A stretch of DNA of 64,000 nt from Porphyridium purpureum (Eukaryota), in contig VRMN01000004.1 of the NCBI GenBank assembly GCA_008690995.1, positions 558,001-622,000 of the forward strand, written 5' to 3'. Shown here piece by piece: positions 23,896-48,097 of the stretch; position 1 is the first letter of the stretch; every line of letters begins with the position of its first letter. The notes under the pieces were generated by a model. The model did not search any database. It was not told where the DNA came from and saw only the letters and a list, made by a program, of their open reading frames with translations. The position numbers and the translations under genes were made by a program.

Positions 23896-23897
23896 TC

Positions 23898-23914: not shown

Positions 23915-23940
23915 GGACGTGGGGTGTGGGCCTGAGTGGC

Positions 23941-24568: not shown

Positions 24569-24605
24569 GTTATATCTGGGATTTTCACTAGAAGCCAGGG
24601 TAAAG

Positions 24606-25454: not shown

Positions 25455-25502
25455 CTCAAATGGATGGGAAAAAGGAGCCCCATTTGAGCAAGACAGTGCT
25501 CC
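25442..25502 (+). promoter_or_regulatory. Putative -1 ribosomal frameshift signal of element A (G_GAT_TTC + stem-loop/pseudoknot)
   Basis: Heptamer at 25442-25448 in gag phase; perfect 10-bp stem GCTCAAATGG (25454-63)/CCATTTGAGC (25480-89); loop GGAGC is complementary to GCTCC (25498-502). pol is in the -1 frame and open from 25400. Confidence 0.7.
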
Positions 25503-28723: not shown

Positions 28724-28841
28724 TTATGTGAATCTGCCGAGCAGAGGTTTTCTCCCGGTGCGCGGGTTCCTCGAGCTCAGAAAGCAGAAATTATTGTTTT
28801 GCCGGACACTCGTCGAGACGTCGAGTGAAGCCGGGGGGAAA

Positions 28842-29201
28842 TGTTATCCGCCGACCCCGCGGATACCTAGTCTTGCGGGATCCTTGCTGTGGCCTTGCTG
28901 TGGCCTTGCTGTGGCCTTGCTGCGGCCTTGCTGGAACCTTGCTGTGGCCTTGCTGGAACCTTGCTGTGGCCTTGCTGGAACCTTGCTGGAACCTTGCTGG
29001 AACCTTGCTGGAACCTTGCTGGTGCACTGTCATTTTTCTCACAGTGCTACCCGGCGAGCTGGAGAACACGGGGCGGCAGTCTATATAAAGGCGTGGAGAC
29101 CCGCGAGCAGGCTCGGGGACAGAAAGGAAGAAGAGAGAGAGAGGTAGCGAAGGGGAGAGAAGAAGGAGAGGGAAAGTAAAAGGAAAAGGAGGTTCATAAC
29201 A
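28842..29201 (+). repeat. Element A 3' LTR (360 bp; 13 copies of the 11-bp unit)
   Basis: Matches the 5' LTR apart from 7 extra 11-bp units and two 2-bp microsatellite gains (81 bp in total). Confidence 0.96.
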
Positions 29202-30460
29202 ATCACACAGGGAATGGTTTTGAAAACTTACTGAGGCAAGACCTCAGCTGTTCCACCGAAGACATTCAGTATTAATTTTGAAAGGGCTGCATCGGCCACT
29301 TATCATTAGTTTACGTAATCGCATTGAGCAACAGCCGTGCACACTGATGAAAAGGAAGATCGGCCTGAGCGAATCAAACGGCTTCTACATGAGGTGGCTT
29401 GAGTGTGCCGAAGATGTTTAAAGCTCTTGGTCGAGATATTCCGGTACCGGTAAATGCAAGGCTCGTGGTATATTGTATGCAAGAACAACAGTTTGCCTTC
29501 ATCTCACTGAGGATACCGTGACGAATGCAATTATATTTCCATGCCTCGTGATGATGGCGTCCCGGACCATTGTTCAAGTACGAGGCTTGAACCCGGTCTT
29601 TTCGCATCAAAGCGCAAAAGTGCAAAAGGGCGGCCTGCATCGTTGTCTCGTGTCTTATTAAAATATGGATCTTCCAGATTGGCCACCGTAGTCGCCACAG
29701 TTCGATGTCACTGAGAATTGGTCGGGGATGCCAGTGCGCAGCTTGACCGAAGAAAACTAGCAGAAATAGACTTTTCACGAGCTCAGAGGTGCCGTGAAGC
29801 TGGCCTCGAAGAACTTGGGCCAGCCTGTGCTGGACAGCGTGTACGAATCTTTGCCAAGACGCTTCTTCGATTGTCTTGATGTTGCACGGTACTGAGTGTG
29901 AGGCAACATCGATGCCGATTCTTTCGGCAGGTAAGCAATCGCTAAAAGTGGGCTGCGTTCCGTTCAGTTTTGGTCTGTCGGCATATCCTCTTTCCACCAG
30001 ACCCTACCCTTCGAATGCCAAAATGGATCACTTTCTGAGGAAGACTCAGATGTAGGCTTGTCGGTTACCCACTCTGATCGCAGTATATTTTCTCGACACG
30101 TAGCCTGAACAGTCAGCCACCATGATGCTTCACGCTTTTGTGCTCTCTGAGACGAAGAAAAGGTCGAGCCTGGCAGCTTGCGCGGACAGGTTTTTCAGCT
30201 TTGCGGACTGCTTTTGCGTGGCGCTCTCGACTGCTTCACGAATGGAGTTTTAGGATAAGCGCCATTCCTTCTTACATCCTTGATCTTTGACCCGTTCGAC
30301 CGCTTCGAGACTTCTGGGCTAGAGATGGCCTCACGCATGCATTTCGTCAACGGAGCAGAACGCTCTCGATGGATGCAAAATCCATTCGACCAGGCCCAGG
30401 GCCGCCGCTCAAGGTCGCTCAAATCCACGAGTCCCGCAAAATGTCGGTCAAAAGTATTGC

Positions 30461-30789
30461 TGTAAAATAGTCGGACCGTTTCGAAGTGGCGACATAACGG
30501 TCCAGTGCCGCGCAGGCCTATGCGCGCGCATATGGCGGTTTCGGAGCCGTCCTCGCAACGGTCGGGTCGTGCAGAGCCCGTGGCTGGGTGGTAAGGCCCA
30601 CCTCGTCGCCCTGCGCTGCAAAGGCGCGTGCCGGGCTGGCCGGGTGTATAAAAGCAGCCACACCCGACGGCCGTCGCCTGGTTAGCTCTCTCACAAGAGA
30701 AGACGCAAGGAAGAGGAGTAGGAGACAACGAGTAAACGGGTCGTCGGATAGGGACGAAGTTTAGAAAACTCCCCGATTATTCCTTCACA
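30461..30789 (+). repeat. Element B 5' LTR
   Basis: Direct repeat of 47769-48097 with about 7 substitutions counted by eye. Confidence 0.96.
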
Positions 30790-30832
30790 GTGGTATCATC
30801 GCTTCGGTTGACCGGTTTCGGGTGAAGCAGAG

Positions 30833-31633
30833 ATGGAAAACTTGCGACAAGCACTGGTTCCGAGGATGGCGCAGGAGCCGGGAGTGCAGGTGTCGCGGCT
30901 CGACACCTACAATGGGTCGAGGGACGTCATTAAGCTACAGACGTGGCTTTTTGCGGCTGGAGATACAGTGTTTGTGCCCCTCAGGGACGCGGTTGGCGTC
31001 ACCGCCACACGTGACACCGCAGTACGGGCAGCGGCAGAAGCGAAGGCGGTCCGCGTGGCCGCGACGTATCTACGTGGAAGCGCGTTGGTCTGGTGGATTG
31101 CGTTGAGCAGGGCCGGGGACGATCCCGCGGTCTGGGATACGTTTGTTCGCGAGCTGGAGGACCAGTTCACACCTCCCAACGCGGCCCGGGCGGCGTACAA
31201 CGATCTGGCTGCGCTTGTGCAAAAGCACAGCGTGGCGCGTTACATCGACGAGTTCCAGATGTGCATTCTCCGCATCCCTCGTATCACTGAGGACGAGAAG
31301 CTGGACCGCTTCGTTCGAGGTCTTAAGAAGCCACCGAGAGTGGAAGTGCTGAAGTCAGGCGCTACAACAGTAGCTGATGCCATGCGCATCGCACTGTCCG
31401 TGGATTCCGCTTACGCGGATGCCCCGCGGGGAGCGTGCGCGCGGGATGACGGCCCAGTTCCCATGGAGCTGGGTGCAGTTGGATTCTCGACGGCGCAAGG
31501 TGGCGGTACTGACAACGCCCGCAAGGTCAAATGCTGGCGTTGTGGCAAGGCAGGCCACAGGAAGGCCGATTGTCGGGCAAAGGAGGTGGATGAACCGGCG
31601 TCAGGAAAAGCGGGAGCCTCCACGCGGGCATAG
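30833..31633 (+). CDS. gag: Element B Gag (homologous to the gypsy Gags of A and D)
   Basis: SRDVIKLQTWLF, AATYLRGSALVWW, KLDRFVRGLKK, DGPVPMELG, CWRCGKAGHRKADC. Confidence 0.92.
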   Translation: MENLRQALVPRMAQEPGVQVSRLDTYNGSRDVIKLQTWLFAAGDTVFVPLRDAVGVTATRDTAVRAAAEAKAVRVAATYLRGSALVWWIALSRAGDDPAVWDTFVRELEDQFTPPNAARAAYNDLAALVQKHSVARYIDEFQMCILRIPRITEDEKLDRFVRGLKKPPRVEVLKSGATTVADAMRIALSVDSAYADAPRGACARDDGPVPMELGAVGFSTAQGGGTDNARKVKCWRCGKAGHRKADCRAKEVDEPASGKAGASTRA

Positions 31634-32156
31634 CCGGTCTGTCGATGGGGGCGTCCGGGGTAGCGGTCGACGCAGGCCGGAGAATCACGGCGCTGTTCTC
31701 GTCGCCGTGTAGCGTTATGGTGACACTGGATGGCTCTGTTGAGGCGCGAGCGCTCGCTGACAGCGGCGCAAACGCCTGCTTCGTGCGACGAGACGTTGCT
31801 GATGCGATGCATGCTGCACGTGCCGGTGAGGAAAGCGCGTGTTCAGATCCTGGTTTTAGCATTCAGTTGGCGGACGAGTCGAAGACGCATGCCACAGGCA
31901 TGCTACGTGCGCACGTGGAGGTTGGAGAGGTCCCTCTTTTCGGAATTGCTCGCACCCTCCTCACCGCTCATTTCCTCGGTTTAGAGAAGCTGAGCTATGA
32001 TGTGGTTTTGGGAAAACCGTGGCTAGAGGCAGGTTTGCCAAAGCCGGTCGCAGAAGGCGAGGAACAAGCCGCGGAATCGTTGGCGTTGGATGGAGCCCAG
32101 GCCGCGTCGACGCATGAACTCATGCACACGCCCAGGGACCTGTCCTGTGAGGCGTG
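31594..32156 (+). pseudogene. pol: Element B pol part 1: aspartic protease and start of the integrase zinc finger (cut by element C)
   Basis: -1 frame relative to gag, open from 31594. ALADSGANACFV...YDVVLGKPWL, then HELMHTPRDLSCEA. Confidence 0.85.
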
Positions 32157-33202
32157 TGTCACGGGAGTAGCCCGTGTGTTAAGGAAATGATTAAAAATAG
32201 CCATAGTCCGTGGCCGGATACCTGGTCGCGCCGGACCCACTGTACTGTAGGTGTACAAGGGGGCGCGTGGTAGGCCTGAAGGCCCCTTCCCTTAGGGACC
32301 AGACGCGCGATGACCACCCAGTATGGAATGGGTGTACAGCCAGGAGGTGGCTGGAACCTTCTGGAAGGTTCTAGACTCAGCGACAGCAAGGCACTGTACC
32401 TCGGGGGTACAGTGGTCGCGATGGGTATAAAAAGACGCGCGGGTCGGCAACCAAGGGGGGGAGAGGGGGGTCGGGAGACAGAAGGAGTAAGGTGGATCTA
32501 AGTAAAAACAGGTGTATTCAAGGAAGCGTGTTCGGGCCTTGGGTACCTGTTGAGGGAGCGGGGGTACAGCGGGAGTACAGCGGGGGTACGGCGGGGGTAC
32601 GGCGGGAGTACAGCGCGAGCGAGCGAGCGGGGGGTTTAACGGGGAAGGTTCGCGGATGCCCTGGGGTAAGGCGTCATTAGACGGTCCTTGTTCGGAAGTG
32701 GATCCGGGGGTGGTACGTGGGCGGGGGCGGATAAAGGAGTGATAGGCCGTTTGAAGCCGAAAGGTGAGGCAACCTCCTCCGGCTAACCCCGGCTGCCCAC
32801 AACGCCTCCCCGGGTCCCGGATCACCGTAAGGTGTGGCCGAACGGGATCCCGGTTGGGCAGCGGACGCCTGGTTCCCCCGTTACGCGCGTCTTCCGTGTG
32901 TGTGCTTTTGGTTGGCTGTGCCTGCTCCGTGCGTGTGCTCTTGGTTGGCTGTGTCTTTCCCGTGTGTCTGCTCTTGGTTGGTTCTGTCGGTCCCGTGTGT
33001 GGGTGCTCTTGGCTGTTTGCGTGTGAACAGCGTGCGTGAGCGTCGTTGGTTCCGGGTTTCCTGCCTGCCGCAGGTCCAGTTGGCTGCGGGTGTCTTGTGT
33101 TTCCTCTTGGTTGCGTGGATTGTCCAGCTTGTGTGCGTGCGTGTGCCGCTTGGCTTGCTGTTGGGTGTGCCGCTGTGTCCTGGGCCAGCACGGTTCGTGA
33201 CA
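32157..33202 (+). repeat. Element C 5' LTR (1046 bp)
   Basis: Near-identical to 38336-39392 (one 11-bp unit indel and one substitution noticed). TATAAAAA at 32426. Confidence 0.96.
32353..32372 (+). promoter_or_regulatory. Heat-shock element (four alternating nGAAn units) in the element C LTR; copy at ~38532-38551
   Basis: gGAAccTTCtgGAAggTTCt, about 55 bp upstream of the TATA box. Confidence 0.7.
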
Positions 33203-33381
33203 TAATTTCCGGAAATTATCTTCCAGGATTGCGTGGCATCTGACGTTGGTGCGAGAGAGGGTGGGGTGTGGACGTGAGATCGGTCTTGATCTTGGACAAA
33301 CTTGTGTCCACATTCTGATACGTACGGTCACCGAGTGAAGGATTGCGAGAGAGGATTCGGAGCAGGAACGAAGTCGCAAAG

Positions 33382-34323
33382 ATGGTGCGTGGCAGGAAGA
33401 CGACGATGGGCTCAGACGATGCGCGAGAGCACGCGTCCTCGAGCGAGCTGGAACGTGCACAGGCTGGCGCGCTGGCACCAGAGCCGACAATGCCCACGGC
33501 TCGTGGTGACGAGATAGGAAGTCATGGGGTTGTGAGTGTTCAGCAGAAGGAAGAGGGTGTCCCCGCCATTGTGCGCGGCAAGATTCGTTCTCAACTGGGC
33601 CAGGCTATTTGTGACGCGGGCGTGCAGATTGAGAAGGCCGGTGATCCACTTTTTCTGACCGCCAAGATGGTCTGGTTCAATCGCCTGCGTGACATGGGAG
33701 AGGATCCAGACCAACATGTATCCTCGATTGATGCAGTTTTCCGCGGGGTGGGGCTGAGGAAATGCTACGAGGTCCTGTCGGAGTTGCACGGTGCAACAGC
33801 ACAAGAGGCATGGGCGGCTGTGGCTGCTTACTTCTACAACAAGGAGCACGAGCGCGCCCTTCGTGCAGAGCATCACGATGTTGAGTATGTTATTGGCCAG
33901 GACCTAAAGAAATTCGTGGAGGTCCTGGAGGATCGCTGCACGGCTCTGGGAGAATCTGACACTCGCAAGATTGAGGCACTTACGTTGGCGCTTCCGAAAA
34001 ACTCCGAGCTGCGTCGTCAGGCCAGGACGTACGGCATACAGGGGAACTGGACCTTGATGAAGACTGCTCTGTTGGAGGAGGCTGGTCAGTATGGAACCTT
34101 TGGTGCGCTTGGCTCGCAGTACGGTGTAAGGGCAGTGAGGAAGCCCGAGCGCGTGCACCATTTGGGTAACTTTGATGAAGCTGGGCTCCCTGGGTTGAAT
34201 CCTCGCAAGCGACTGGTCAAGTGCTGGGAGTGCCAGGAGCGGGGCCACGTTCGCATGGAGTGCCCAAAGTGGGAGAAAAATAAGAGGCAGAGGACCGAAG
34301 AACGCCAGACAAAAAACGAGTAG
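33382..34323 (+). CDS. gag: Element C Gag (CCHC knuckle)
   Basis: ORF between the LTR and pol; CWECQERGHVRMEC; first ATG at 33382. Confidence 0.85.
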   Translation: MVRGRKTTMGSDDAREHASSSELERAQAGALAPEPTMPTARGDEIGSHGVVSVQQKEEGVPAIVRGKIRSQLGQAICDAGVQIEKAGDPLFLTAKMVWFNRLRDMGEDPDQHVSSIDAVFRGVGLRKCYEVLSELHGATAQEAWAAVAAYFYNKEHERALRAEHHDVEYVIGQDLKKFVEVLEDRCTALGESDTRKIEALTLALPKNSELRRQARTYGIQGNWTLMKTALLEEAGQYGTFGALGSQYGVRAVRKPERVHHLGNFDEAGLPGLNPRKRLVKCWECQERGHVRMECPKWEKNKRQRTEERQTKNE

Positions 34324-34346
34324 CGGGGGGATGCGAAGGCCCCCCG
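34311..34346 (+). promoter_or_regulatory. -1 ribosomal frameshift signal of element C
   Basis: Canonical A_AAA_AAC (34311-34317) in gag phase, 6-nt spacer GAGTAG, 7-bp all-GC stem CGGGGGG/CCCCCCG. pol is in the -1 frame. Confidence 0.9.
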
Positions 34347-34358
34347 GAATCTGAAGAA

Positions 34359-37300
34359 TTGTCGGAGGCAGTCCCACTGGGCTCGTATCCATGGATACAC
34401 GTACAGGCTGAATGGGGAGGTCTGAAGGTTCGGACTACTGCGCTGGTTGATACGGGGGCTTTATCCACGTGGATGAACGACGATTTGGCTGACCGTCTTG
34501 GGCTTCTTCGCAGAAAGACCCACACACAGGCATTGGGCCCAACCAATGAGGTGTTGGGGGAGGCCGAGGAGAGCGTTGCCACAATTTGGGTTGGTGAGGG
34601 AATTCAGTCGGAGGAAAGCGTCCGGATTATGAGGAACCTCGGACCTGATCTCATACTGGGAATGCGTTTTCTTGCCAAGCATGTCAGTTGCTTGATCCCG
34701 GGAAAGGGTCTGGGCCTACGCTCGGGCGGATGGATTACTTTTGTCAACCGAGACGTTTCCAGTGCACAGGAAGCCGTGTGTCATACATGCCTGGAAAGAC
34801 ACAGGATCCTGGGATCGATGTATGAGGAAGCCAAACCCACGGTGCAGTTGGAGGCGGTGCACTATATTGCTGATGGAGCAGAAGTGAAGAAGCGAATCCA
34901 GGCCCTCGAAGAAAAGTATGCAGGTCACAACGAGGCTGTTTGTTCTACCATTGAAGCCAAGATCTTTGAGCATTTGGATGAAGCGCAAAGCAGGGAGATG
35001 AAAGGGCTCTTGAAGAAGTTTTGGGTTCTCTTCCGGCCGGAGCTGGGTAAGACAGACCTCGTCGAGCATACGATTCGCATCAAGCCAGAGCGTTTGGAGG
35101 ATCTCCCCAGGGCAAGGTTACGTCGCAGGGCTCCTGCGGTGACGCAGGCTGAGCGCGAGATGGTGCAAGGGCTGGTCGCCCGAGGAGTGCTGGAGCCGAG
35201 TTTGTCAGATGTGTCGAGCCAGAATGTCATGGTCAAGAAGCCGAATGGCGGCTGGCGTCTGACGACAGACTTCCGAACGCTTAATGATGCGACTGTTAAA
35301 GATCGATATCCCATTCCGGACGTGGGAGAGATGATCGACTGGTTTGCATCGTGGAAGTTCAAGAGTATCCTGGATCTGAAGGATGGCTTCTTCCAAGTCC
35401 CTCTGGCCCCCGAGAGCCGACCATTGACAGCGATTATCACTCCGGACGGGCTGTTTCAATACTGCCGATTACCTCAGGGTTGCTGTAATAGCCCAAGTAC
35501 CTTCCAGCGATTGACAAATACGGTCCTGGGCCCGCTCAGGTACCTGAATGCATTGGTTTACATTGATGATTTGGCAATCGGGACAAAGACGTTTGAAGAG
35601 CACTTGCAAGCGCTGCAGCGGGTGCTGGAGCAATTCTGCGCTGCGGGCTTGGTGTTCTCATTGTCGAAGTGCAGATTTGGGGCTTTAAGGGTCGAGTTTC
35701 TTGGACATGATATCGGCCTGGACGGTATAAGGCCGAGCCAGAGGAAGACGGAGGCTGTGCGAGCATGGCAGGAGCCGAGGAATGCAAAGGAACTGCAGCA
35801 GTTCATTGGGCTCGTGGGGTGGTTCCGCAATTTTATCGAGGGATTTGAGGAAGTCTGCAGGCCTCTTAGGGATGCTATGAAGGGCCTTCAAATCAACGCC
35901 AAAGGAAGCAAGTGGAAGAAATACCCTATGAACTCGGCGGATTGGCAGGCACGATTTGGTGAGCCTCAGAGTCAGGCGCTTCTGTCGCTTCGGGAAGCAC
36001 TCAGTGATCCAGAAACTGGAGATCGAAAGGTTTTGGCTGCATACGACCCAGAAGCAGAGCATACGCTGTGGACAGACGCTTCTAGCACTGGCTTGGGAGC
36101 AATGTTGACGCAGAGGGAGGGCACTGGCGATCGTCCAGTGGCATTTTACTCGAGGCTTCTGAGACCGGCCGAGCAGAACTATACCGTGACGGAGAAGGAG
36201 TGCTTGGCCGCCATTGCAGCCATGGAGCACTTCAGGCATTACTTGTACGGCAAACGATTCGTGCTCATGACTGACCACAGCGCATTGAGCTGGCTCATGA
36301 GGCAAAAGGAGCCTCAAGGTCGGATTGCGCGATGGATTCTCAAGGTACAGGACTTCGACTTCCAGGTTCAGCATCATCCAGGCAAGGCGAATACAGTGGC
36401 AGATGCGCTTTCGCGTCCAGCTGTACGTATGAATGAGGAAGAGGCTCGGGTGGCGAGCGAGAGCAATAAGTCTGAGACTCTCAACAACACGAGCGAAATC
36501 GAGCTCATTGGACTGAATGCTGTTGAGGATGAGGAAGTGAAGCGGGTAGTTCGGTTGGCTGAAATGCTGCAGGAAGAGATTCAGGGTCCAGCTTCGGGGG
36601 CCGATGGGGGTATGGTCCCTGTCACATCGGCCGGAGTGCGAGAGCTGCTGCTTCATACTGGCGAGCATACAGGAGCGAACGATGCGTACACACCACCTTC
36701 GATGGAAGAGATCGTGGCTGCATACGCAGACGACACGGACATTCAGGAACAGTTGAAGAATCTGAAAGCAGACAAGCCCGAATACACGTACCCGGAGTAC
36801 ACCGTTGATGAGGATGGAGTCATCTGGGCTATGCTTCGCGATGAGTCCAGGGTCGTGATACCAAACGCTCTGGTGCAGCGCGTCCTGCATGTGTATCACA
36901 GCACGCCACTTTCAGGGCACCTTGGAATAGGAAAGACTGCAAAGCGGGTCTCGGATGCACGATACTGGTGGACCGGTTGGACGGAAGATGTTCGTCAGTT
37001 TGTTCTTTGTTGCCATGAGTGCTTTTCAAGGAAAACAAAGGCGCCCCCGAGAAGGGCTCGCATGCAAGTCTATCGCGCGGTGAGACGTTTCGAGATTGTC
37101 TCGATAGATGTTCTGAGTATCACACCGACAACAACTCGCGGGCACAGCAAAGTGGTAATCATGGTGGACGCCTTCACAAAGTGGGTTCGTGCCCATGCAG
37201 TCAAGGATGAGACTGCGGCTACACTGGCACGTGTTTTCCTAGACGGTTGGGTGTGCGATTTTGGACCGCCAGAGTCTCTGCTGTCCGACCGGGGACCGGG

Positions 37301-38096
37301 CTTTGTAGCCGACATCCTTTCAAAAATGTGTGAAAATCTGGGTGTAGGACGTATGCTTACGACAGCATACCATCCGCAGACGAACGGGGTTGTGGAGCGC
37401 TTTAACCAGACAGTGTGTCAAATGTTGTCGGCATACGTGTGTGCGAACGGAAAAGACTGGGATCGCTGGTTGCCGGTAATGGTGTATGCGTATAATACAG
37501 CCCGGCATGCATCCACGAAGATGTCTCCGTTTGAACTGTTGTATGGTGAGCCGGCGCGGGACTGGGCAAGTATGGCGGGACCCAGAGCTGTTGAACAAGC
37601 AGATGACCTCGCGAAGAAGCTTGCTGCATGTCACGCCATTGCCAATAAGAATGCGAAGATCGCACAGGATCGGTACACGAAGAACTATGATCGCCGAGTC
37701 AGGGAACATGACTTCAAGCCGGGCGACGTGGTGTACGTTTGGGCGCCGCCTTCAGGAGAAGGGCGCAAGCTGAAAAAGCCGTGGGTAGGACCACTATCCA
37801 TCCTGAGAATGGTCGGGGTTCATGCAGTACTGTGCAGTGAAGGCCATCCTGACGGGAAGTTGGTCCACGTGAACCGGCTTGCTCGGGCCCACAAGGACCT
37901 CCTTGAGGCAAGTGGATCCCAAGTCTTGCAAGGAGAAGACGGCAGCTGGGCTATAGAGGCTATAGCCGGGGATCGGGTTGTGGGCGGACGCCGAGAGTAC
38001 AGAGTTAGATGGCGAGGACTCGGTAAACGTGGGGATACGTGGGAACCTGAGCTCGCATTGCCACCAATGATGGTGGCTGCCTACCGTGACGCGTGA
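34359..38096 (+). CDS. pol: Element C Pol (PR, RT, RNase H, IN, chromodomain); probably made as a Gag-Pol fusion
   Basis: LVDTGA, YIDD, WTDAS..ADALSR, HHCC/DDE, and C-terminal WAIEAIAGDRVVGGRREYRVRWRGLGKRGDTWEPE. Confidence 0.96.
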   Translation: MSEAVPLGSYPWIHVQAEWGGLKVRTTALVDTGALSTWMNDDLADRLGLLRRKTHTQALGPTNEVLGEAEESVATIWVGEGIQSEESVRIMRNLGPDLILGMRFLAKHVSCLIPGKGLGLRSGGWITFVNRDVSSAQEAVCHTCLERHRILGSMYEEAKPTVQLEAVHYIADGAEVKKRIQALEEKYAGHNEAVCSTIEAKIFEHLDEAQSREMKGLLKKFWVLFRPELGKTDLVEHTIRIKPERLEDLPRARLRRRAPAVTQAEREMVQGLVARGVLEPSLSDVSSQNVMVKKPNGGWRLTTDFRTLNDATVKDRYPIPDVGEMIDWFASWKFKSILDLKDGFFQVPLAPESRPLTAIITPDGLFQYCRLPQGCCNSPSTFQRLTNTVLGPLRYLNALVYIDDLAIGTKTFEEHLQALQRVLEQFCAAGLVFSLSKCRFGALRVEFLGHDIGLDGIRPSQRKTEAVRAWQEPRNAKELQQFIGLVGWFRNFIEGFEEVCRPLRDAMKGLQINAKGSKWKKYPMNSADWQARFGEPQSQALLSLREALSDPETGDRKVLAAYDPEAEHTLWTDASSTGLGAMLTQREGTGDRPVAFYSRLLRPAEQNYTVTEKECLAAIAAMEHFRHYLYGKRFVLMTDHSALSWLMRQKEPQGRIARWILKVQDFDFQVQHHPGKANTVADALSRPAVRMNEEEARVASESNKSETLNNTSEIELIGLNAVEDEEVKRVVRLAEMLQEEIQGPASGADGGMVPVTSAGVRELLLHTGEHTGANDAYTPPSMEEIVAAYADDTDIQEQLKNLKADKPEYTYPEYTVDEDGVIWAMLRDESRVVIPNALVQRVLHVYHSTPLSGHLGIGKTAKRVSDARYWWTGWTEDVRQFVLCCHECFSRKTKAPPRRARMQVYRAVRRFEIVSIDVLSITPTTTRGHSKVVIMVDAFTKWVRAHAVKDETAATLARVFLDGWVCDFGPPESLLSDRGPGFVADILSKMCENLGVGRMLTTAYHPQTNGVVERFNQTVCQMLSAYVCANGKDWDRWLPVMVYAYNTARHASTKMSPFELLYGEPARDWASMAGPRAVEQADDLAKKLAACHAIANKNAKIAQDRYTKNYDRRVREHDFKPGDVVYVWAPPSGEGRKLKKPWVGPLSILRMVGVHAVLCSEGHPDGKLVHVNRLARAHKDLLEASGSQVLQGEDGSWAIEAIAGDRVVGGRREYRVRWRGLGKRGDTWEPELALPPMMVAAYRDA

Positions 38097-38335
38097 CCAG
38101 TGGCGGAACCTCGGACACACCGGCCGGGTGGAGGGCCACGTGGACGGACGTCCTCTTCGAGTACTTACGATGCCAAGACGGGCACACGAAGCCGATGGCC
38201 AGTGCACGGGCGACATCGAGCTTGAGACGTGGATGCCGGACGCGTCAAGCATTGGCATGTGCTGTAAGTATGAAGTGACTCTCCGGAAGCTTCGGACCAT
38301 GTGATACCTGACATTGGGAAGCGGAGAGGGTGGGA

Positions 38336-39392
38336 TGTCACGGGAGTAGCCCGTGTGTTAAGGAAATGATTAAAAATAGCCATAGTCCGTGGCCGGATAC
38401 CTGGTCGCGCCGGACCCACTGTACTGTAGGTGTACAAGGGGGCGCGTGGTAGGCCTGAAGGCCCCTTCCCTTAGGGACCAGACGCGCGATGACCACCCAG
38501 TATGGAATGGGTGTACAGCCAGGAGGTGGCTGGAACCTTCTGGAAGGTTCTAGACTCAGCGACAGCAAGGCACTGTACCTCGGGGGTACAGTGGTCGCGA
38601 TGGGTATAAAAAGACGCGCGGGTCGGCAACCAAGGGGGGGAGAGGGGGGTCGGGAGACAGAAGGAGTAAGGTGGATCTAAGTAAAAACAGGTGTATTCAA
38701 GGGAGCGTGTTCGGGCCTTGGGTACCTGTTGAGGGAGCGGGGGTACAGCGGGAGTACAGCGGGGGTACGGCGGGGGTACGGCGGGGGTACGGCGGGAGTA
38801 CAGCGCGAGCGAGCGAGCGGGGGGTTTAACGGGGAAGGTTCGCGGATGCCCTGGGGTAAGGCGTCATTAGACGGTCCTTGTTCGGAAGTGGATCCGGGGG
38901 TGGTACGTGGGCGGGGGCGGATAAAGGAGTGATAGGCCGTTTGAAGCCGAAAGGTGAGGCAACCTCCTCCGGCTAACCCCGGCTGCCCACAACGCCTCCC
39001 CGGGTCCCGGATCACCGTAAGGTGTGGCCGAACGGGATCCCGGTTGGGCAGCGGACGCCTGGTTCCCCCGTTACGCGCGTCTTCCGTGTGTGTGCTTTTG
39101 GTTGGCTGTGCCTGCTCCGTGCGTGTGCTCTTGGTTGGCTGTGTCTTTCCCGTGTGTCTGCTCTTGGTTGGTTCTGTCGGTCCCGTGTGTGGGTGCTCTT
39201 GGCTGTTTGCGTGTGAACAGCGTGCGTGAGCGTCGTTGGTTCCGGGTTTCCTGCCTGCCGCAGGTCCAGTTGGCTGCGGGTGTCTTGTGTTTCCTCTTGG
39301 TTGCGTGGATTGTCCAGCTTGTGTGCGTGCGTGTGCCGCTTGGCTTGCTGTTGGGTGTGCCGCTGTGTCCTGGGCCAGCACGGTTCGTGACA
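38336..39392 (+). repeat. Element C 3' LTR (1057 bp)
   Basis: Direct repeat of 32157-33202. Confidence 0.96.
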
Positions 39393-40715
39393 CGTGCCAG
39401 ACTGGGAAAGAGCGCAGAACGTCTCCCAAACGTTCGGGTGCGCAAGCAGTTCGGCGGTCCGCTATTGAGGTTGATTTAATCGATTCAGGAGCCCGGGAAG
39501 AGGGGTGGTCGCGTGGCGGGGCGCGGTACGTAATGGTCTGCCTTGACCATCGCGACCGCTGGCTCACGGTTCATGCTCTTCGGGAGAACACGGCGGAAGC
39601 GACCGCTCCAGCGTTTATTCGCGGACTGGCAGGACAGTCGTGGCCGGAGGTCGTCAAGACAGACGACGGACGAGAGTTTACTGGGGCGTTCTCGAAAGCT
39701 GTAGTTGAGCACGGTGCGAGGCACGAAGTTGCAGTGCCTCGCCGCCCGAACACGCACGCGCCCGTCGAGTCAATGAATCGGACGCTGTTGGGAGCTGTGA
39801 GAGCCTCTCTTGTTTCCTCTGGTCTCCCTGCGCGCTTTTGGGAGGATGCGACACTGCATTTTGCATTCGTGTGGAACAGGGCCCACAGGCCAAACGGCTC
39901 TCCGCATGAAGCAAGGCATCAGGTGTTGTACCGACAAGACAAGCTGTTGCCGTTTGGGTGCGCGGTTATGTACTTCGACGACGAAGCGTCAAAGTTTGCG
40001 GCAAGGGCTCGCCTGGGCGTGTTGATTCGCTATCACGAAGAATCCGCCATCGTGGTGGTCGACGCGGAGGAGCTGGCAAGCGGGCGGACTCGGGAAATCG
40101 TCACAAGGGATTTCGTACCCCGGCGAGGTGAGTACCCGGCCCGTCGTCTCGGTCTGCGGCCGTTGGGAGAGCGGATATGGCTGGAGGATGAATATGAGGC
40201 AGGCGACGGCCCAGCGGCAGAACTTTGCGGCCGATGTCATAAAAGGCGGGTCACCGCAGTGGCATGTCCTAGGTGCCTGGGAAGAAAGGCGCGCCGGCAT
40301 CGGCGGGATGCGACGTGTGCGATCGGGGCCTGCAGATGCTCGCCAGCCGAAATCCTGAGTCGTGAACGTCGGGTCGCCGCTCGCGCAGAGCGGGAGACGG
40401 GACGGATTTATCAAAGCGAAAAGCGCGAGCGCGAGCGGGCCGCGCGGGCACTGGCGGCGGAAGGCAAGCGAGAGCGTAAGGAACAGAAGAGGGCACGGAG
40501 GGCAGCTGCTGTCCGGCGACGTCCGCAGTCCGCGAGCCTCGTGGAGCCCGCACTCAGGTTGGCTGTACCGAGGTCGACACGGTCTGGCCGTGTTGTTCGG
40601 CAGCCCGGAAAACTCAGCCTGGGGGTCACCGTCGTCGTGCCCCGCAGCGAGGCATTGGGACAGTCGTGCTTCGCGAAGGCACGCACCGTCAAATGTGAAC
40701 GATTGAAAAGGTTCG
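39393..40715 (+). pseudogene. pol: Element B pol part 2: copia-type integrase core, Cys-rich insert and linker
   Basis: IEVDL, GARYVMVCLD, KTDDGREF, VESMNRTL, SGLPARFWEDA, PFGC..SKFAARAR are Ty1/copia integrase hallmarks. Confidence 0.9.
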
Positions 40716-41034
40716 TGTTATCCGTTCGACCCAGTCACCTAGAACGGTTCGGTTAATCCAAAACCGGTAAGCCGTTAAACCGGCAGACCGTTTAACCGTT
40801 TCTAGAACCTTCTAGAGGTTCCAGAACCTTCTAGAGGTTCCAGAACCTTCTAGACGCGCGCAGAAATGCCAATGGTTTGCATTGTCATTTCTCTTGGCGC
40901 CTTGCTGTCCCTGGCGGAAGTAAGGGTATAAAAAGGCGACGCGCCTGCCCGGACTAGCCGGTCAGGTCTTGCTCGGAGAGAGAAGAGGAAGGTAAGAAGA
41001 AGAGAGAGAGAATAAAGGCACAGCATTGGTAACA
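40716..41034 (+). repeat. Element D 5' LTR (319 bp)
   Basis: Differs from the 3' LTR only by a 1-bp and a 4-bp indel, as far as seen. Confidence 0.96.
40800..40854 (+). promoter_or_regulatory. Tandem heat-shock elements (3 x TTCnnGAAnnTTC, 21-bp period) in the D LTR; also at ~45992-46046, and 2 units in the solo LTR
   Basis: TTCtaGAAccTTCtagaggTTCcaGAAccTTCtagaggTTCcaGAAccTTC upstream of TATA 40927. Confidence 0.68.
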
Positions 41035-41603
41035 TTTGGTATCATCGCTGGTTACCTGGGGTTGCTCTAAGGTTCTCTTAGAGTTTCTCTGGGGTTGCCT
41101 GGGTGGGAGAGTCTGCGGGTAAGGGGGTTCGAGTAAGTCGATCCGGAGGGTGCGACGGGTGGAAGCGGGTCTCAGTCTTGGCTGTACGATAGGCCTAGGC
41201 CTTGACGGCGGACTCGCTCTCTGCCTTAGCACGTATTAGTAGGCAAGAGCCGTAACGGTCAGCCTTCACTAGGATTCATCCTAGTGTCGCACGACCACCT
41301 TTGCGAAGGTAGGCGCCGAACACCTCCATACAAGATCGCATCTATAATCCCCGCCCCAGTGCAAAGGCCCGGGCCGCTCCCCATCCAGCGCAACAGAGGA
41401 GGATTGCTGTGTGCTTTGTTGTTTGTGCGTGAGAAGATTGCTGTGTGCGTGTGTGTGCGTGAGAGGACCGCTTCGTGTGTCGATTTGTGGTCGTGAGGGC
41501 GACCGAGCCCGTTCGTGTTGCGCGCAGCTGTTGGAGAAAGTGAGCATCGGAGGCTTGCTGTTCGTGTTGTCGTGATCGTTGAGCGTGCTTGTGCCCAGGA
41601 AGC

Positions 41604-42410
41604 ATGGAGATTGATTCGGAGACGCTGGGACCACGTGGCCCGAAGGAGGCCCGTCTGATGAAGTTCGACGGGAAGCGTGACCTTCTGGTTGTGAAGACGT
41701 GGTTGTTCCAGGCGAGAAAGAAGATCTTGGGCCGGTTGTTGGAGAGCATCCACCCGGACGATTTGGAGAAACGTCTGCTTGCGGAGAGGCGTGCTGTGGA
41801 CTTGGCTTCTGACTATTTCGAGGGAGAGGCGCTTCATTGGTGGGTTCTAAACTGCGAACGCTACCCGCAGGAGATCCCCACGACGTGGAATGATTTTGCT
41901 GCCCTCGTGAGTGCTCGGTTCACGCCGCAGGATTCGATCAGGCGTGCAAGGGACAAGTTGACGCGTCTTTCGCAGAAAGGCCCGGCCCATGCGTATGTGG
42001 CGGCTTTTCAGGACGCGGCACTTGTGATTCCGGACTTGTCGGACGCAGAAATGATGGACCGCTTTGTGAGGGGTCTGAAGCCCGAGGTCCGCTTGGAAGT
42101 GTACAAGCGAGGAGTGAGTACGTTCGCGGAGGCTGCGCAGGTGGCGGTGGTCGTGGACGACGCCATTCATGCGACCCGCGGCGTGCGTGATTCAAGTGTG
42201 AGGACGCCATTTTTCGGTCGTGCAGCGCAGGAAGGACCCGTCCCAATGGAGTTGGGACATGTGCAGGGTCAGAGGCATGTTCGTACCGAGATCAAGTGCT
42301 GGAATTGTGGAAAGCCGGGGCACATCGCCAGGAAGTGTCCCGAGGCAAAGAAGACTATCCACCAGCTGGAGGGAGACTCGCTGGAGTCGAAAAACGAGGA
42401 GCTCGAGTAG
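41604..42410 (+). CDS. gag: Element D Gag
   Basis: ALHWW, DRFVRGLK, PMELG, CWNCGKPGHIARKC; first ATG at 41604. Confidence 0.93.
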   Translation: MEIDSETLGPRGPKEARLMKFDGKRDLLVVKTWLFQARKKILGRLLESIHPDDLEKRLLAERRAVDLASDYFEGEALHWWVLNCERYPQEIPTTWNDFAALVSARFTPQDSIRRARDKLTRLSQKGPAHAYVAAFQDAALVIPDLSDAEMMDRFVRGLKPEVRLEVYKRGVSTFAEAAQVAVVVDDAIHATRGVRDSSVRTPFFGRAAQEGPVPMELGHVQGQRHVRTEIKCWNCGKPGHIARKCPEAKKTIHQLEGDSLESKNEELE

Positions 42411-45400
42411 AGAGGTTCCTCGGACAGTCAGAGGGAAAGGAGGCTCGCAGACGTTACGAGACCTCTAGGGGCGGCAATGGAGACCGCTGTGGTGGCCTTG
42501 GTAAGCCAAGGTCTGGCTGTCCGACGCCTTGTGGGCGAAACTCGAGCGCAAATCAGCCCGTGATCAAGGAACTTGGAGGAATGGGAGCTGCCATGCTTCT
42601 TCGAGTTCGAGGAAAAGTGCACAAGTCCGACGGAGAGGCCACGTTTTTGATTGACAGTGGCGCGACGGACAACTTTATGAGCGTGGACTTTGTGCTGAAA
42701 TCCGACGGCCTGAAGCAGAAGGCGTCGTGGAAGAGAGATCATGTGACCCTGGCAGACGGGTCTGTATTGGAGACAGCCGGAGAAGTCTCCAATGTCAAGT
42801 TTGAACTGAGCGATGGGTACTCAGGGGCCGCTAACTTTGCCATTTGCCGGATTGCGGGACAAGACGCAATCTTGGGCATGGAGTGGCTGAAGCGGGAGAA
42901 CCCAGTGATTGATTGGCAGTCTGGCATGTTGGCCTACGGAGAGAAGAAGGCCTGGAGCATGACGCAGATGCTGGTGCCACGGAAAGAGCTCCGTCGGCTG
43001 TTGAAGAGTCAAGAGGTAGAAGAGTGCTACCTCGGCGTGCTGAAAGGAAGGGAGGAGCCCTGTTCAGTGGAGCGCAAAGAAGCTGACTCTGTGAGAAAGA
43101 TGCTCAATGATTTCGAAAATCTGTTCGAGGAGCCGCGAGGGCTGCCTGAGAGCCGAACAGTGGAGCATGTGATCAGGCTGAAAGATGAGAAGCCTGTGAG
43201 AGTGGGCAGGGTCTACCGACTGAGCCCTGCGGAGTTGAAAGTCCTCCGAGAGACTTTGGATGACTTACTGGACAAAGGATTCGTCCAGCCGAGTCAGAGC
43301 CCGTTTGGAGCACCCGTGCTGTTCGTGAAGAAGAAAGACGGCAGCATGAGGATGTGCGTCGATTATCGGGCGTTGAACGACGCAACTGTGAAGGACCGGT
43401 ATCCGTTGCCGAACATGGATGAGTTGCTGGATCGACTGGGCGCAGCTCACTGTTTCTCAAAGTTGGATTTGGCATCGGGATACCACCAGTTGCGTGTTCG
43501 GAGAGAGGACGTGCCGAAGACCGCGTTCCAGACCAGGTACGGACAGTTCGAGTTCCGTGTGATGCCGTTTGGTCTTTGCAACGCGCCGGCAACATTTCAG
43601 AGGGCCATGAACGAGCTGTTTGCAGATCTGCTGGACAAGACCGTCATTGTCTACTTGGACGATATTTTGGTCTTTACGAAGGATAGGCAGTCGCACGGCG
43701 AGGTCCTGAAGGAAGTGTTGTCGCGCTTGCAAAAGGCGGGGTATCGGTTGAAGCGCAAGAAGTGCAGCTTCTTCGTTTCTGAAGTCGAATACCTGGGGAA
43801 CATTGTCGGCAACGGTTGCGTGAAGATGGATCCACGGAAGGTGGAAGCTTTGAGAGATTGGCCAGTGCCAAAGACGGTGACGGAGTTGAGATCCTTTTTG
43901 GGAATGACAAACTGGTTTCGCAGGTTTGTCAAAGGATACTCTACCGTGGTGGCGCCGCTGACTTCGCTGTTGCAGCACGCAAAGTCGAAGAAGCAGCTGA
44001 TCGAACTGGGAGATGAAGGCAAGTCGGCCTTCAAGAAGATTGTGGGGATGTTGACGGAAGCGCCGGTGTTGGCCTTGCCAGACCCTGAAAAGCCATTCGA
44101 GGTGTACACAGACCGCTCCGAAGTCGCGGTGGGGGGATGGCTGGCACAGGAAGGCAGACCGGTCGCGTTTACGTCAAGGAAGCTGCTGGACCGAGAGACC
44201 AGGTACAGCAGCTATGAAGGTGAGCTCATGGCCGTCATTCACTGTCTGCGAGAGTTTCGACCTTATCTGTACGGGGCAAAGTTTGTGCTTCATACAGATC
44301 ATGAGGCGTTGAAACATTTGATGACGCAGAAGGAGCTGAATGGCCGGCAAGCACGGTGGCTGGACTTTTTAGCCGAGTTTGATATCACAATCGACTACGT
44401 GAAGGGAAAGTCGAACGTGGTAGCCGATGCTTTGTCGAGGAAGCCGGAGTTGCACGCGCTAGAGTACCAAGTTCGGTGTGATGAATTTGGTACGGCTTTC
44501 CAGGCATTCGTGGGTTCGTACTCGAGTGACCCAGACTTTGGTACTTTGATGGGAGATTTACCGACCCACCAAGGTTTTCGAACCGAAGCTGGGCTCTTGT
44601 ACTTGAGGAATCGCGTTTGCGTGCCGAGGAAGTTCAGAGAGCGTATCATGCAGCTCCACCACGATATCCCGACAGCAGGGCACCGTGGAGCGGACACAAC
44701 TTATGCATCTTTGATAACTCGCTTCTACTGGCCAAAGATGAAGCGAGACGTGAGCCGTTTTGTGAAGACTTGTCACGAGTGCCAAGTGACAAAGTCAGAG
44801 AATCGGTCGTTTGGAAAGCTGAAGCCCTTGTCGATCCCAGAAGGACCTTGGGTCGACATCTCGATGGACTTTGTGACGGAGCTGCCTCGGAGCGAAGGCA
44901 GCTGTGATGCAATCATGACTGTGGTGGATCGCTATTCGAAGATGGCGCTGTTTATCCCGACGCGCAAGGACTTGACAGCAAAACGTTGTGCTGACTTGTT
45001 CGTGAAGCACGTCGTGAGCCGTTTCGGATACCCCAAGTCAATTGTATCGGACCGAGATCCGCTGTTTACGTCCACGTTTTGGCAGCAGTTGAGCAAGCGG
45101 GTGGGCATGAAGTTGGCTATGTCTACCGCCAACCACCCGCAGACTGATGGCCAAACTGAGCGAGTGAACCGGGTGATTCGGGAAATGCTCAAGTTAATGG
45201 CGACGAATAGTGGCTGGGTGCGAGACTTGCCGTTGTACGAGTTTGCGTACAACTCTGCACCAAGCAGTGCCACTGGATTCGCGCCGTTCAAAGTGGTATA
45301 TGGAAGGGATCCTTGGTTTCCACCGAGCGAAGGGTGGAGGCCTGCGCGCGACGGACAGACAAAGGACATGGCGGAGCACTGGTTTCGCCTGTGCAAAGTC

Positions 45401-45787
45401 CATGAAGAAGTCCGCGACAATTTGATCGAAGCCCAGGGGAGAATGCAGAAGTTCTTCGATCGACGCAAGGATGCCCGGGAGTTTCAAGTTGGTGATCAAG
45501 TGTTGGTCACGGCGCCGCAACTGCGGCCGAACAAGAGTGATTTGGAGGCACCAAAGTTTCTTGGTCCGGTGCCTGTCATTGAGAAGGTAAGCTCGCATGC
45601 TTACCGAGTGATTTTGCCCGAGGGTGTGGCTTGTCATGATGTTTTTCCGATCCAACATCTGAAGCCATACTATGGACGCGAAGACTACATGGCAGGGGAA
45701 AATGATGAAGAAGTACCCGACGACCTGCCAACGTCCGATTCTGAGCCAGACTTGTTGAAAATTATCGAAGAGTCTGACTCTGAATGA
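42296..45787 (+). CDS. pol: Element D Pol (PR, RT, RNase H, IN); -1 frame overlapping gag, candidate slip site G_AAA_AAC at 42389-42395
   Basis: LIDSGA, YLDD, RNase H and DDE integrase; collinear with and highly similar to A Pol. Confidence 0.97.
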   Translation: MLELWKAGAHRQEVSRGKEDYPPAGGRLAGVEKRGARVERFLGQSEGKEARRRYETSRGGNGDRCGGLGKPRSGCPTPCGRNSSANQPVIKELGGMGAAMLLRVRGKVHKSDGEATFLIDSGATDNFMSVDFVLKSDGLKQKASWKRDHVTLADGSVLETAGEVSNVKFELSDGYSGAANFAICRIAGQDAILGMEWLKRENPVIDWQSGMLAYGEKKAWSMTQMLVPRKELRRLLKSQEVEECYLGVLKGREEPCSVERKEADSVRKMLNDFENLFEEPRGLPESRTVEHVIRLKDEKPVRVGRVYRLSPAELKVLRETLDDLLDKGFVQPSQSPFGAPVLFVKKKDGSMRMCVDYRALNDATVKDRYPLPNMDELLDRLGAAHCFSKLDLASGYHQLRVRREDVPKTAFQTRYGQFEFRVMPFGLCNAPATFQRAMNELFADLLDKTVIVYLDDILVFTKDRQSHGEVLKEVLSRLQKAGYRLKRKKCSFFVSEVEYLGNIVGNGCVKMDPRKVEALRDWPVPKTVTELRSFLGMTNWFRRFVKGYSTVVAPLTSLLQHAKSKKQLIELGDEGKSAFKKIVGMLTEAPVLALPDPEKPFEVYTDRSEVAVGGWLAQEGRPVAFTSRKLLDRETRYSSYEGELMAVIHCLREFRPYLYGAKFVLHTDHEALKHLMTQKELNGRQARWLDFLAEFDITIDYVKGKSNVVADALSRKPELHALEYQVRCDEFGTAFQAFVGSYSSDPDFGTLMGDLPTHQGFRTEAGLLYLRNRVCVPRKFRERIMQLHHDIPTAGHRGADTTYASLITRFYWPKMKRDVSRFVKTCHECQVTKSENRSFGKLKPLSIPEGPWVDISMDFVTELPRSEGSCDAIMTVVDRYSKMALFIPTRKDLTAKRCADLFVKHVVSRFGYPKSIVSDRDPLFTSTFWQQLSKRVGMKLAMSTANHPQTDGQTERVNRVIREMLKLMATNSGWVRDLPLYEFAYNSAPSSATGFAPFKVVYGRDPWFPPSEGWRPARDGQTKDMAEHWFRLCKVHEEVRDNLIEAQGRMQKFFDRRKDAREFQVGDQVLVTAPQLRPNKSDLEAPKFLGPVPVIEKVSSHAYRVILPEGVACHDVFPIQHLKPYYGREDYMAGENDEEVPDDLPTSDSEPDLLKIIEESDSE

Positions 45788-45906
45788 CTTGGGAATTGTG
45801 AGAAGTTTGCTAGGCAGAGGTTTTCTCCCGGAGCGCGGGTTCCTCGAGCCAAGAATGCAACTTAGTTTGAAGTCTCGCCGAGACGTCGAGCCAAGAGGGG
45901 GGGAGA

Positions 45907-46222
45907 TGTTATCCGTTCGACCCCAGTCACCTAGAACGGTTCGGTTAATCCAAAACCGGTAAGCCGTTAAACCGGCAGACCGTTTAACCGTTTCTAGAAC
46001 CTTCTAGAGGTTCCAGAACCTTCTAGAGGTTCCAGAACCTTCTAGACGCGCGCAGAAATGCCAATGGTTTGCATTGTCATTTCTCTTGGCGCCTTGCTGT
46101 CCCTGGCGGAAGTAAGGGTATAAAAAGGCGACGCGCCTGCCCGGACTAGCCGGTCAGGTCTTGCTCGGAGAGAGAAGAGGTAAGAAGAAGAGAGAGAGAA
46201 TAAAGGCACAGCATTGGTAACA
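45907..46222 (+). repeat. Element D 3' LTR (316 bp)
   Basis: Direct repeat of 40716-41034. Confidence 0.96.
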
Positions 46223-47773
46223 GTTCGGCACTTGGAACCCGATTCCAATCTCCTTTGAATCAGCGAGGGCGGACCCTTCGGCTACCTTTGTCAACGCACA
46301 TTTCATTTACGCAATGAAACACGCGGAGTGCGACGTCGACAAGAGGATTGCAAAGGTTCGGCTGGTTGCGGCTGGCAACAATTTGCGTGATGTGGGGGGC
46401 GCGCTAACTCATCAGGACGTGCCATACGCAGCCCCGGCAAGCCTTGCGTCACTTCGTGTCACCGTGGCGCTTGCGGCTGCTCGCGGGCACAGTGTGGCAA
46501 AGCTAGACGTGACATCCGCATACCTACAGGTCCAACTCGGAGGACCGCCGGTATTCGTTCGACTGCCGAAGGAGCTTCCTGAGTCGCGAGATGGAGTATA
46601 TAGGCTGGAGAAGGCGCTGTATGGCCTCGAGCGCTCTGGTGCGGACTTCATAGCGGAGACCTCGAAGAAGCTACAAGCCCAGGGATGGCGTGAGGTTGCT
46701 CAGTCGTTGTTCGTACGCGATAGTACCACACTGTTGGCATACGTTGACGACTTTCTTTTGACCGGAGAGCAAGAAAGTGTGCGGCGTGCGATTTACAGAA
46801 ATTGTATGAGTTTGACAACGAGCCGGTTTTCTTGGAAGAAGATGCGCCACTCGTTTTCTTGGGAATAACTCTGCGACTGACCGCGGATTGGGTGCAGCTA
46901 GACCACACAGAGTATGCGCGCTACGCGTCACGGAACGCCTCTACGGGGCCCATGCGCAGGAAGGGACCGAGAACGCCGGACGTGGAGCCGGCCGTGGAGG
47001 AGTTCGAGGAGTCATTCGAAGATGACGGGCGAGCTCGCAAGGTCATTGGAGCTCTGCTTTGGCTTTCGCGTACAACTCGGCCGGATATTGCGCGTGCAAC
47101 GGCGCGAGTGGCTCGCTTTGTGGACAACTGGACACTCGGTGCGAGTCGCTTGCTCAAAAGACTCGAGGAGTATGTGTTGTGCAACCCCATCAGCGTGATT
47201 CGGTACCCCAGGCAACGAGTGATCGACAGCAGTTGCCGGGTTATCGCGTTCAGTGACTCAGACTTCGCGGGCGATTCTGCTGCAAAAGCGCGCAGTACAA
47301 GCGGGGCTGCATTTTTCTTGGAATTGGGCGGCGCAAGGTATCTCGTGGACTGGTCGAGCGGGCTCCAGCGAGCTGTGTCCACAAGCTCAGCGGAGGCGGA
47401 GCTTGTGGCGTTAGCGTCGGCTTGCAAGACAGTGTTCGCCGTCTTGGAAAGTCTACCGGAGCAAGACGGCACCAAGGTCGAGGTGGGTTCGGACAGTGCG
47501 GCGGCTTTGGGCGCCGTGCGCCGTGGATGGTCTGCAAAACTCGCGCATGCGCGCAGGACGCAAAGGGTCTGTGTCTCGTGGCTTCACGATCTGGAGGAGC
47601 AGCAGGGCTTCGTCTTCGTGTGGGTTCCTTCCGGGCGCAACGCCGCGGATATTTTCACCAAGAGCTTCGGTCCACTCGAATTCTTGCGTAAGATTGGGCT
47701 GTTGGAGAACGAACGGGTCTTTAGCAATAAGCTGGAGGAGGCGGCGAGCCCGGCTTCGATGGGGGCGCTGTAA
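46223..47773 (+). pseudogene. pol: Element B pol part 3: copia-type RT and RNase H, with a frameshift near 46790
   Basis: KVRLVAAG, LDVTSAYL, LEKALYGLERSG, YVDD; then in the shifted frame TRPDIA, FSDSDFAGD, STSSAEAE, ADIFTK. The stop lies inside the 3' LTR. Confidence 0.93.
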
Positions 47774-48097
47774 AATAGTCGGACCGTTTCGAAGTGGCGA
47801 CATAACGGTCCAGTGCCGCGCAGGCCTATGCGCGCGCATACGGCGGTTTCGGAGCCGTCCTCGCAACGGTCGGGTCGTGCAGAGCCCGTGGCTGGGTGGT
47901 AAGGCCCACCTCGTCGCCCTGCGCTGCAAAGGCGCATGCCGGGCTGGCGGGGTGTATAAAAGCAGCCACACCCGACGGCCGTCGCCTGGGTAGCTCTCTC
48001 ACAAGAGAAGACGCAAGGAAGAGGAGTAGGAGACAACGAGTAAACGGGTCGTCGGATAAAGACGAAGTTTAGAAAGCTCCCCGATTATTCCTTCACA
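47769..48097 (+). repeat. Element B 3' LTR
   Basis: Direct repeat of 30461-30789. Confidence 0.96.

Follow-up and report, generated by a model that had tools for sequence, protein, structure and literature searches.

A Porphyridium purpureum retrotransposon that combines a gypsy-type Gag and protease with copia-type integrase, reverse transcriptase and RNase H

Can the capsid of one retrotransposon superfamily be carried by the enzymes of another? The question is raised by a locus of the single-celled red alga Porphyridium purpureum. We analysed a window of 64,000 nucleotides (assembly GCA_008690995.1, contig VRMN01000004.1, positions 558,001 to 622,000), and all positions below are counted from its first letter. 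An element with long terminal repeats (LTRs), here called B, lies at 30461-48097 on the forward strand. Two other LTR elements, C and D, are nested in it, and a third one, A, is its neighbour. An earlier note, made from the letters of this window, had proposed that B belongs to an inter-superfamily recombinant lineage. Our results bear this out and place the event in the distant past. Very probably, B is a copy of a hybrid lineage that carries a Ty3/gypsy Gag and protease (PR) on a Ty1/copia integrase (IN), reverse transcriptase (RT) and RNase H (RH), through what is likely a single ancient switch.

The features of B and of the three other elements are the following (TSD, target-site duplication).

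30454-30460: left copy of the B target duplication, GTATTGC (or TATTG at 30455-30459 if the LTR begins at 30460)
30461-30789, + strand: 5' LTR of B, 329 bp
30791-30803, + strand: primer binding site (PBS) of B, TGGTATCATCGCT
30833-31633, + strand: gag of B, 266 aa, Ty3/gypsy-type capsid with PMELG motif and CCHC knuckle
31594-32156, + strand: pol piece 1 of B, gypsy-type protease (DSG at 31759-31767); a short IN zinc finger begins at 32113
31603-31609, + strand: candidate -1 frameshift site of B, A GGA AAA, within the 40-nt gag/pol overlap
32157-39392, + strand: nested element C, gypsy, with chromodomain IN, LTRs of about 1050 bp and a 4-bp TSD, CGTG
39397-40715, + strand: pol piece 2 of B, copia-type IN core, SH3-like domain and start of the RT
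39473 (D), 39662 (D) and 39767 (E), + strand: IN core residues of B, with 34 residues between the second D and the E
40226-40339, + strand: Cys-rich motif 3' of the IN core of B, seven Cys and one His, without Pfam match
40716-46222, + strand: nested element D, gypsy, with 319/316-bp LTRs and a 5-bp TSD, GTTCG
46228-46868, + strand: pol piece 3a of B, copia RT (KALYGL at 46611, YVDD at 46740)
46748-47773, + strand: pol piece 3b of B, end of the RT and copia RH (TRPDI, SDSDFAG, ADIFTK)
47758-47765, + strand: polypurine-tract-like sequence of B, GATGGGGG
47769-48097, + strand: 3' LTR of B, 329 bp
48098-48104: right copy of the B target duplication
23617-29201, + strand: neighbour A, gypsy element, TSD ATCAC

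The limits given for B in the earlier note were confirmed. Its LTRs are identical at 322 of 329 bases, and excising C and D with one copy of each duplication leaves 4885 bp. C is flanked on both sides by CGTG and D by GTTCG. Excision had been said to restore the reading frame, and the arithmetic is congruent at both joints. At C, 563 nt (2 mod 3) meet an offset of 2; at D, 1 mod 3 meets an offset of 1. The claim of one pol frame through PR-IN-RT(-RH) was right in part. The frames agree across both joints, but in this assembly the RT shifts frame just after YVDD (open reading frame 46221-46868, then 46748-47773), a possible lesion or assembly error. Because of this frameshift and the two insertions, this copy is probably non-autonomous. 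C and D are younger than B, since their LTR pairs show few differences (one mismatch and one 11-nt gap in C; no mismatch and five gap positions in D). This agrees with the nesting.

The Gag of B is of the gypsy type. It matches Retrotrans_gag (5e-16), Ty3_capsid (1e-13) and zf-CCHC in Pfam, with no match to the copia-type Gag domain Retrotran_gag_2 at E 0.1. The motifs listed for it earlier are all present (TWLF, AL.WW, DRFVRGLK, PMELG). By HHalign, the chimeric Gag scores 99.95% against gypsy Gag (41% identity) and 52.5% against copia Gag (12% identity). A profile of 13 Gags, including those of A and D, matches Ty3 Gag, dArc1/2 and PEG10 in the PDB. It matches the Copia virus-like particle protein only via the zinc knuckle. 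In the tree of the capsid (CA) region, six copia-linked Gags form a starred clade with A and D (95/91 with 28 rows, 97/92 with 21 rows); outside it are Gags with a verified gypsy pol (five other rows). The nearest gypsy relatives of the B Gag in this tree are the Gags of A and D. The kinship with A and D proposed for it therefore stands, but at 34-39% identity they are cousins and no direct donors.

The protease is also gypsy-like, and the pattern on which this claim was first based (DSGA...LAD...D.VLG.PWL) is present. The HHalign values for the chimeric PR are 98.6% against gypsy and 91.4% against copia; for the PR of the B clade alone they are 96.9% and 67.0%. Each of the six chimeric PRs fits a gypsy-PR hidden Markov model (HMM) better than a copia-PR HMM; the scores range over 15.7-45.7 and 4.7-11.8 bits, respectively. 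The copia-type protease domain Pol_BBD has no Pfam match in the PR of B. Thus, neither Gag nor PR grouped with ordinary copia proteins.

The rest of pol is of the copia type. The order PR-IN-RT-RH is that of copia, and the copia motifs quoted beforehand for IN, RT and RH are present without exception (SGLP..FW, KALYGL, YVDD, SDSDFAG, ADIFTK). The RT matches RVT_2 at 6e-15 versus 0.036 for RVT_1. In the IN, rve (1e-5) and SH3_retrovirus (3e-3) are both below the cut-off, and a structure model recovers the retroviral-type integrase core. The RT-RH tree separates B from gypsy with a support of 100. Likewise, the IN tree places B on the copia side with a support of 100 against three gypsy INs. In both trees, B is on the copia side and outside the canonical copias. 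The RT-RH tree was built by a quick method. The motif rule missed 14 of its 65 chosen rows; an HMM recovered 11 of them and supplied 3 more.

The pol branch of B is marked by a short N-terminal IN finger, H-x3-H-x6-C-x2-C (H-x3-H-x-P-x4-C-x2-C). The Cys-rich motif after the IN core is probably zinc-binding. It is common to B and its metagenomic relatives and occurs in 21 of the 247 stored proteins, none of them a canonical copia. No fold was obtained for this domain. In the region matching it, the related families P0032, P0033 and P0039 show weak Myb-like matches. The Cys-rich and Myb-like regions are candidate integration-targeting modules.

Where was the break, and in which direction did the modules move? 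The metagenomic members of the B IN/RT branch have a copia-like PR (HHalign, 97.0% to copia and 4.1% to gypsy) and no Ty3_capsid match, which places the break between PR and the IN finger. By its sequence marks, a short IN zinc finger and a Cys-rich IN domain, the donor of pol is placed in a divergent branch of copia. On the Gag side, the Gag profile found nine metagenomic loci with a B-like Gag. Five have a gypsy RT (60-64% identical to that of A, in the -1 frame relative to gag), one has a gypsy PR only and three are too short. None of the nine has a copia pol. Therefore, the Gag-PR came from gypsy. A 'longer' Gag search gave three matches, which are weak evidence, and no relatives turned up in the viral contigs searched.

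The union of the two halves is found in other copies and families as well. Our comparison with other runs covered 5 of the 24 listed sequencing runs, as short-read assemblies; X10 and X11 come from two studies. A contig of 2162 nt from X11 matches 30778-32156 (57 differences, no gaps) and then 39393-40179 (15 differences). This copy, which lacks C, therefore has Gag, PR and IN in one uninterrupted stretch. X10 has the C-free joint (28 of 30 letters). The D-free joint, 40715 to 46228, is present in X10 and X11 (26 and 30 of 30 letters). Hence contigs of other runs, short-read assemblies and not long reads, carry both joints. Another X11 contig (13021 nt) follows the left flank as far as 30460 and continues about 8 kb beyond, as would be expected of a strain in which B is missing here.

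The lineage is apparently under purifying selection, to judge by the X11 copy. Among the differences listed between this copy and B, 23 of 51 are synonymous (about 26% expected, p 0.0025) and none creates a stop. Over 246 aa, the B Gag matches Porphyridium purpureum FVE85_2862 with 100% identity. In the RNA run X22, raw reads cover 31146-32115 at a depth of about 9-20, nearly all of them sense-oriented if the library is of the usual stranded kind. The read depth of B relative to its own flank is about 3.0, 1.9 and 1.6 in X11, X2 and X1; these ratios are not copy numbers and were not used as evidence.

Other copies of the B family hold LTR insertions at 31158 and 30512-30516, D-family-like in X11 and A-family-like in X2. 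Gypsy elements therefore struck this family repeatedly. Two public gene models lie at the locus, P0001 and P0026, in which gag is joined to PR and the D LTR to the B RT. These joins use predicted introns that span the frameshifts, and the models are probably not real splice products.

Other insertions also bear on the ends of the family. The duplication at B is either 7 bp (GTATTGC) with TG..CA ends or 5 bp (TATTG) with CTG..CAG ends. Among the matches listed, contig matches of other insertions start at 30460 (C), in 3, 4 and 4 contigs of X11, X1 and X2, and stop at 30790-30791 (G). On this evidence, CTG..CAG ends with a 5-bp TSD seem more likely than TG..CA ends with 7 bp.

Compared with 1.8 billion representatives, the RT-RH end of B has its closest true relatives among P. 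purpureum proteins. Besides B, five families of this alga link a Ty3-type Gag to a copia-type pol. Ty3_capsid, Retrotrans_gag and RVT_2 occur together in single gene models (P0176, P0190, P0037/P0181 and P0038/P0183/P0184). Consecutive accession numbers join Gag P0003 with copia pol P0028, and Gag P0002 with copia pol P0030. P0179 has a gypsy PR and an RVT_2 copia pol; its Gag was not seen. The RT-RH identities of the related families to B are 51, 49, 47, 38, 33 and 32%, so the lineage is old. A search with the P0176 pol gave 50 matches from 7994 scored candidates, mostly ordinary copias. Only P0234, a plant gene model, had Ty3_capsid and RVT_2 among them, together with RVT_1.

One old recombination event behind B and these families is likely, and it is the simplest reading of the trees. 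The chimeric INs form one clade (SH-like approximate likelihood ratio test, 90-93), and so do the chimeric Gags (87/79). The monophyly of the chimeric families in RT-RH is not rejected (approximately unbiased test, AU, p 0.52).

Several points weigh against this account. The PR of B matches Asp_protease_2 at 4.8e-4, below the cut-off. The PR tree is weak (support 83), and the gypsy-PR HMM was made from 3 sequences, the copia-PR HMM from 25. For the fold model of the B Gag (predicted local distance difference test, 79.5), gypsy-derived capsids ranked first and the Copia capsid matched too. The search did not separate the superfamilies (Copia capsid 8vvw, E 0.012; Ty3, 0.0098). The fold is therefore not diagnostic. 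The nodes for a single origin are unstarred (Gag, 81/74 and 87/79; IN, 90-93), and the trees were made without the named GyDB and REXdb references (GalEa, CoDi, Ty1). The proteins of the related families come from gene models, and such models may run frames together or leave out inserts, as happens in P0001 and P0026 at this locus. The hairpin 3' of the slippery site of B is not significant (z -1.2). Finally, the free RT-RH trees divide the chimeric families into two groups.

This last point bears on the number of captures. The copia pols of Porphyridium might have taken a gypsy Gag-PR more than once, and modules might have moved the opposite way too, with a canonical copia Gag-PR-IN placed on the RT-RH of this lineage. 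We regard this as possible but doubtful. In the free trees, P0037/P0038 form a group apart from those of B and P0179. The P0179 PR is 36-37% identical to the PRs of A and D, and the B PR is 27% identical to that of A. In addition, P0186, P0188 and P0107/P0243 of P. purpureum have Retrotran_gag_2, Pol_BBD and a canonical-type IN, yet their RT-RH is inside the starred 14-row Porphyridium-type clade (97). However, the Gag tree and the IN tree each give one chimeric clade, and the AU test retains both RT-RH monophyly and the placement of P0186, P0188 and P0107 with canonical copia (p 0.09). A second module swap in P0186, P0188 and P0107/P0243 is possible but not significant by this test.

That no recombination occurred is very unlikely. 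A deep copia branch would have kept an ancestral Gag-PR resembling that of gypsy, or would have given its Gag to A and D. Copia and Ty3 capsids do share a fold, and in the unrooted Gag tree a single branch sets off the chimeric Gags. Nevertheless, the CA of B is 41% identical to that of A, above the 35% between A and the gypsy Gag P0005 (almost the same as the Gag at gypsy locus L001), and copia Gags align at just 12%. The members of the IN/RT branch outside Porphyridium, with their copia-like PRs and no Ty3_capsid match, also oppose it. This explanation is largely refuted.

A local accident or assembly chimera, in which a gypsy 5' half and a copia 3' half were fused here and nowhere else, is hardly credible. 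The locus does consist of densely nested repeats and has an RT frameshift. However, both halves lie between one pair of matching LTRs and within one target duplication, and the same layout occurs in diverged families. The explanation is refuted by the X11 contig with its intact Gag-PR-IN link and by the P. purpureum family gene models. A recent origin from A or D was likewise rejected. At the DNA level B resembles A, C and D only in the PBS and in weak Gag stretches (best E 0.017), and its Gag identity to A and D, together with the five more families, shows that B is not a recent local recombinant.

An ancient hybrid lineage, probably formed once, is thus the reading we retain, and a mechanism can be proposed for it. 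LTR elements package two RNAs in one particle, which permits template switching. Near the boundary of PR and IN, the template probably changed from an A/D-like gypsy to a divergent copia, which would have given a product with a gypsy 5' half (PBS, gag, frameshift and PR) and a copia 3' half (IN-RT-RH and polypurine tract). Two features of B that had been read earlier from this window, and are present, fit such an origin. The 13-nt PBS core TGGTATCATCGCT is common to A (23898), B and D (41037), and a -1 pol frame is shared by A, B, C and D. The primer is presumably the initiator Met tRNA, by the features of that tRNA; there are no tRNA genes in the window. In the X11 copy the slippery site reads G GGA AAA, because of a G at 31603. 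Intact members would assemble a gypsy-like particle and make Gag-Pol by a -1 frameshift inherited from the gypsy parent. Priming would use the tRNA that A and D also use. The gypsy protease would process Pol, and the copia enzymes would reverse-transcribe and integrate the element. This copy was later struck by C and D. Present-day co-packaging of B with A or D is possible, although with Gags 34-39% identical it is not to be assumed.

How does B compare with known systems? It resembles Ty1/copia in its PR-IN-RT-RH order, RVT_2-type RT, RNase H ending in ADxxTK and IN with an SH3_retrovirus domain. It differs from it by lacking a Retrotran_gag_2 Gag and a Pol_BBD protease, by its shortened IN zinc finger and by the extra Cys-rich IN domain. 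With Ty3/gypsy of the A/D lineage it shares the Ty3_capsid Gag, the gypsy-type PR, the 13-nt PBS core and the -1 pol. In contrast to gypsy, its IN precedes the RT, and its IN, RT and RH are not gypsy. Because the copia tests fail for Gag and PR and the gypsy tests fail for order and RT, B is best described as a hybrid lineage, though filed as Ty1/copia by its enzymes.

Judged by titles, the closest red-algal precedent is PyRE10G of Porphyra yezoensis. The title, by Peddigari in 2008, reportedly makes the integrase its gypsy-like part. On that description alone B is set apart, since its gypsy-like part is Gag-PR. PMC3587641 treats PyRE10G as GalEa-like and reports GalEa-like elements in Porphyridium cruentum. 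The marks it describes for GalEa are a DTGC protease, an HX4HX30CX2C finger and the PBS TGGTAGCAGAGC; by these marks B differs, with DSGA, H-x3-H-x6-C-x2-C and TGGTATCATCGCT. In Gmr1-like elements, too, IN comes before RT and gypsy-type parts are present (PMC3587641, PMC2774666). Nevertheless, Gmr1 is a gypsy whose domains are reordered, whereas the IN, RT and RH of B are copia by profile and tree, and its RT is RVT_2. The diatom copia CoDi-A resembles B in a copia IN with an added C-terminal module, a chromodomain in CoDi-A (PMC2774666). The module of B is instead Cys-rich and without Pfam match, and the sections consulted in that paper report no gypsy Gag-PR. Our full-text literature searches, seen as titles and abstract starts and with subscription journals, Repbase and GyDB outside their scope, gave no gypsy Gag-PR on a copia pol.

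In the gene-dense window, LTR elements are clustered on the + strand between 23.6 and 48.1 kb. In 23600-48100 all five LTR pieces have the same orientation, and the GC skew is steadily positive. In C, a perfect 16-bp palindrome (33203-33218) directly follows the 5' LTR and takes up the place expected for a tRNA primer site. RNA reads cover the LTR of C heavily, at a depth of about 3000, and its IN has a chromodomain. A solo LTR of the D family (24272-24568, TSD GTTAT) lies in the leader of A, just 5' of its gag. A degraded D-like fragment is at 7563-8371 on the - strand. A 927-aa open reading frame (19680-22460, - strand) contains a long Pro/Thr/Ser repeat, with 12-nt units at 20162-20353, and has no Pfam match.

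What does the locus mean for these elements? The taxonomy of retrotransposons and viruses (Pseudoviridae versus Metaviridae) presumes that capsid, protease and enzymes are inherited together. A wider picture, tentative as a whole, is that Gag-PR and IN-RT-RH may be exchangeable cassettes. Porphyridium would then hold a living, radiated hybrid lineage, the product of a second swap, and gypsies with the same primer site that could share capsids. Untrimmed CTG..CAG integration, IN targeting by the Cys-rich domain and an independent origin in other eukaryotes would belong to this picture. The REXdb survey took 'signs of chimerical origin' in an element to mean a likely misprediction and discarded it (PMC6317226); filtering of this type is a blind spot for hybrids like B. 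The B lineage is a natural system for a gypsy protease acting on a copia Pol and for integrase packaging. Diversified and transcribed, it indicates that the particle of one superfamily and the enzymes of the other can be compatible over long times.

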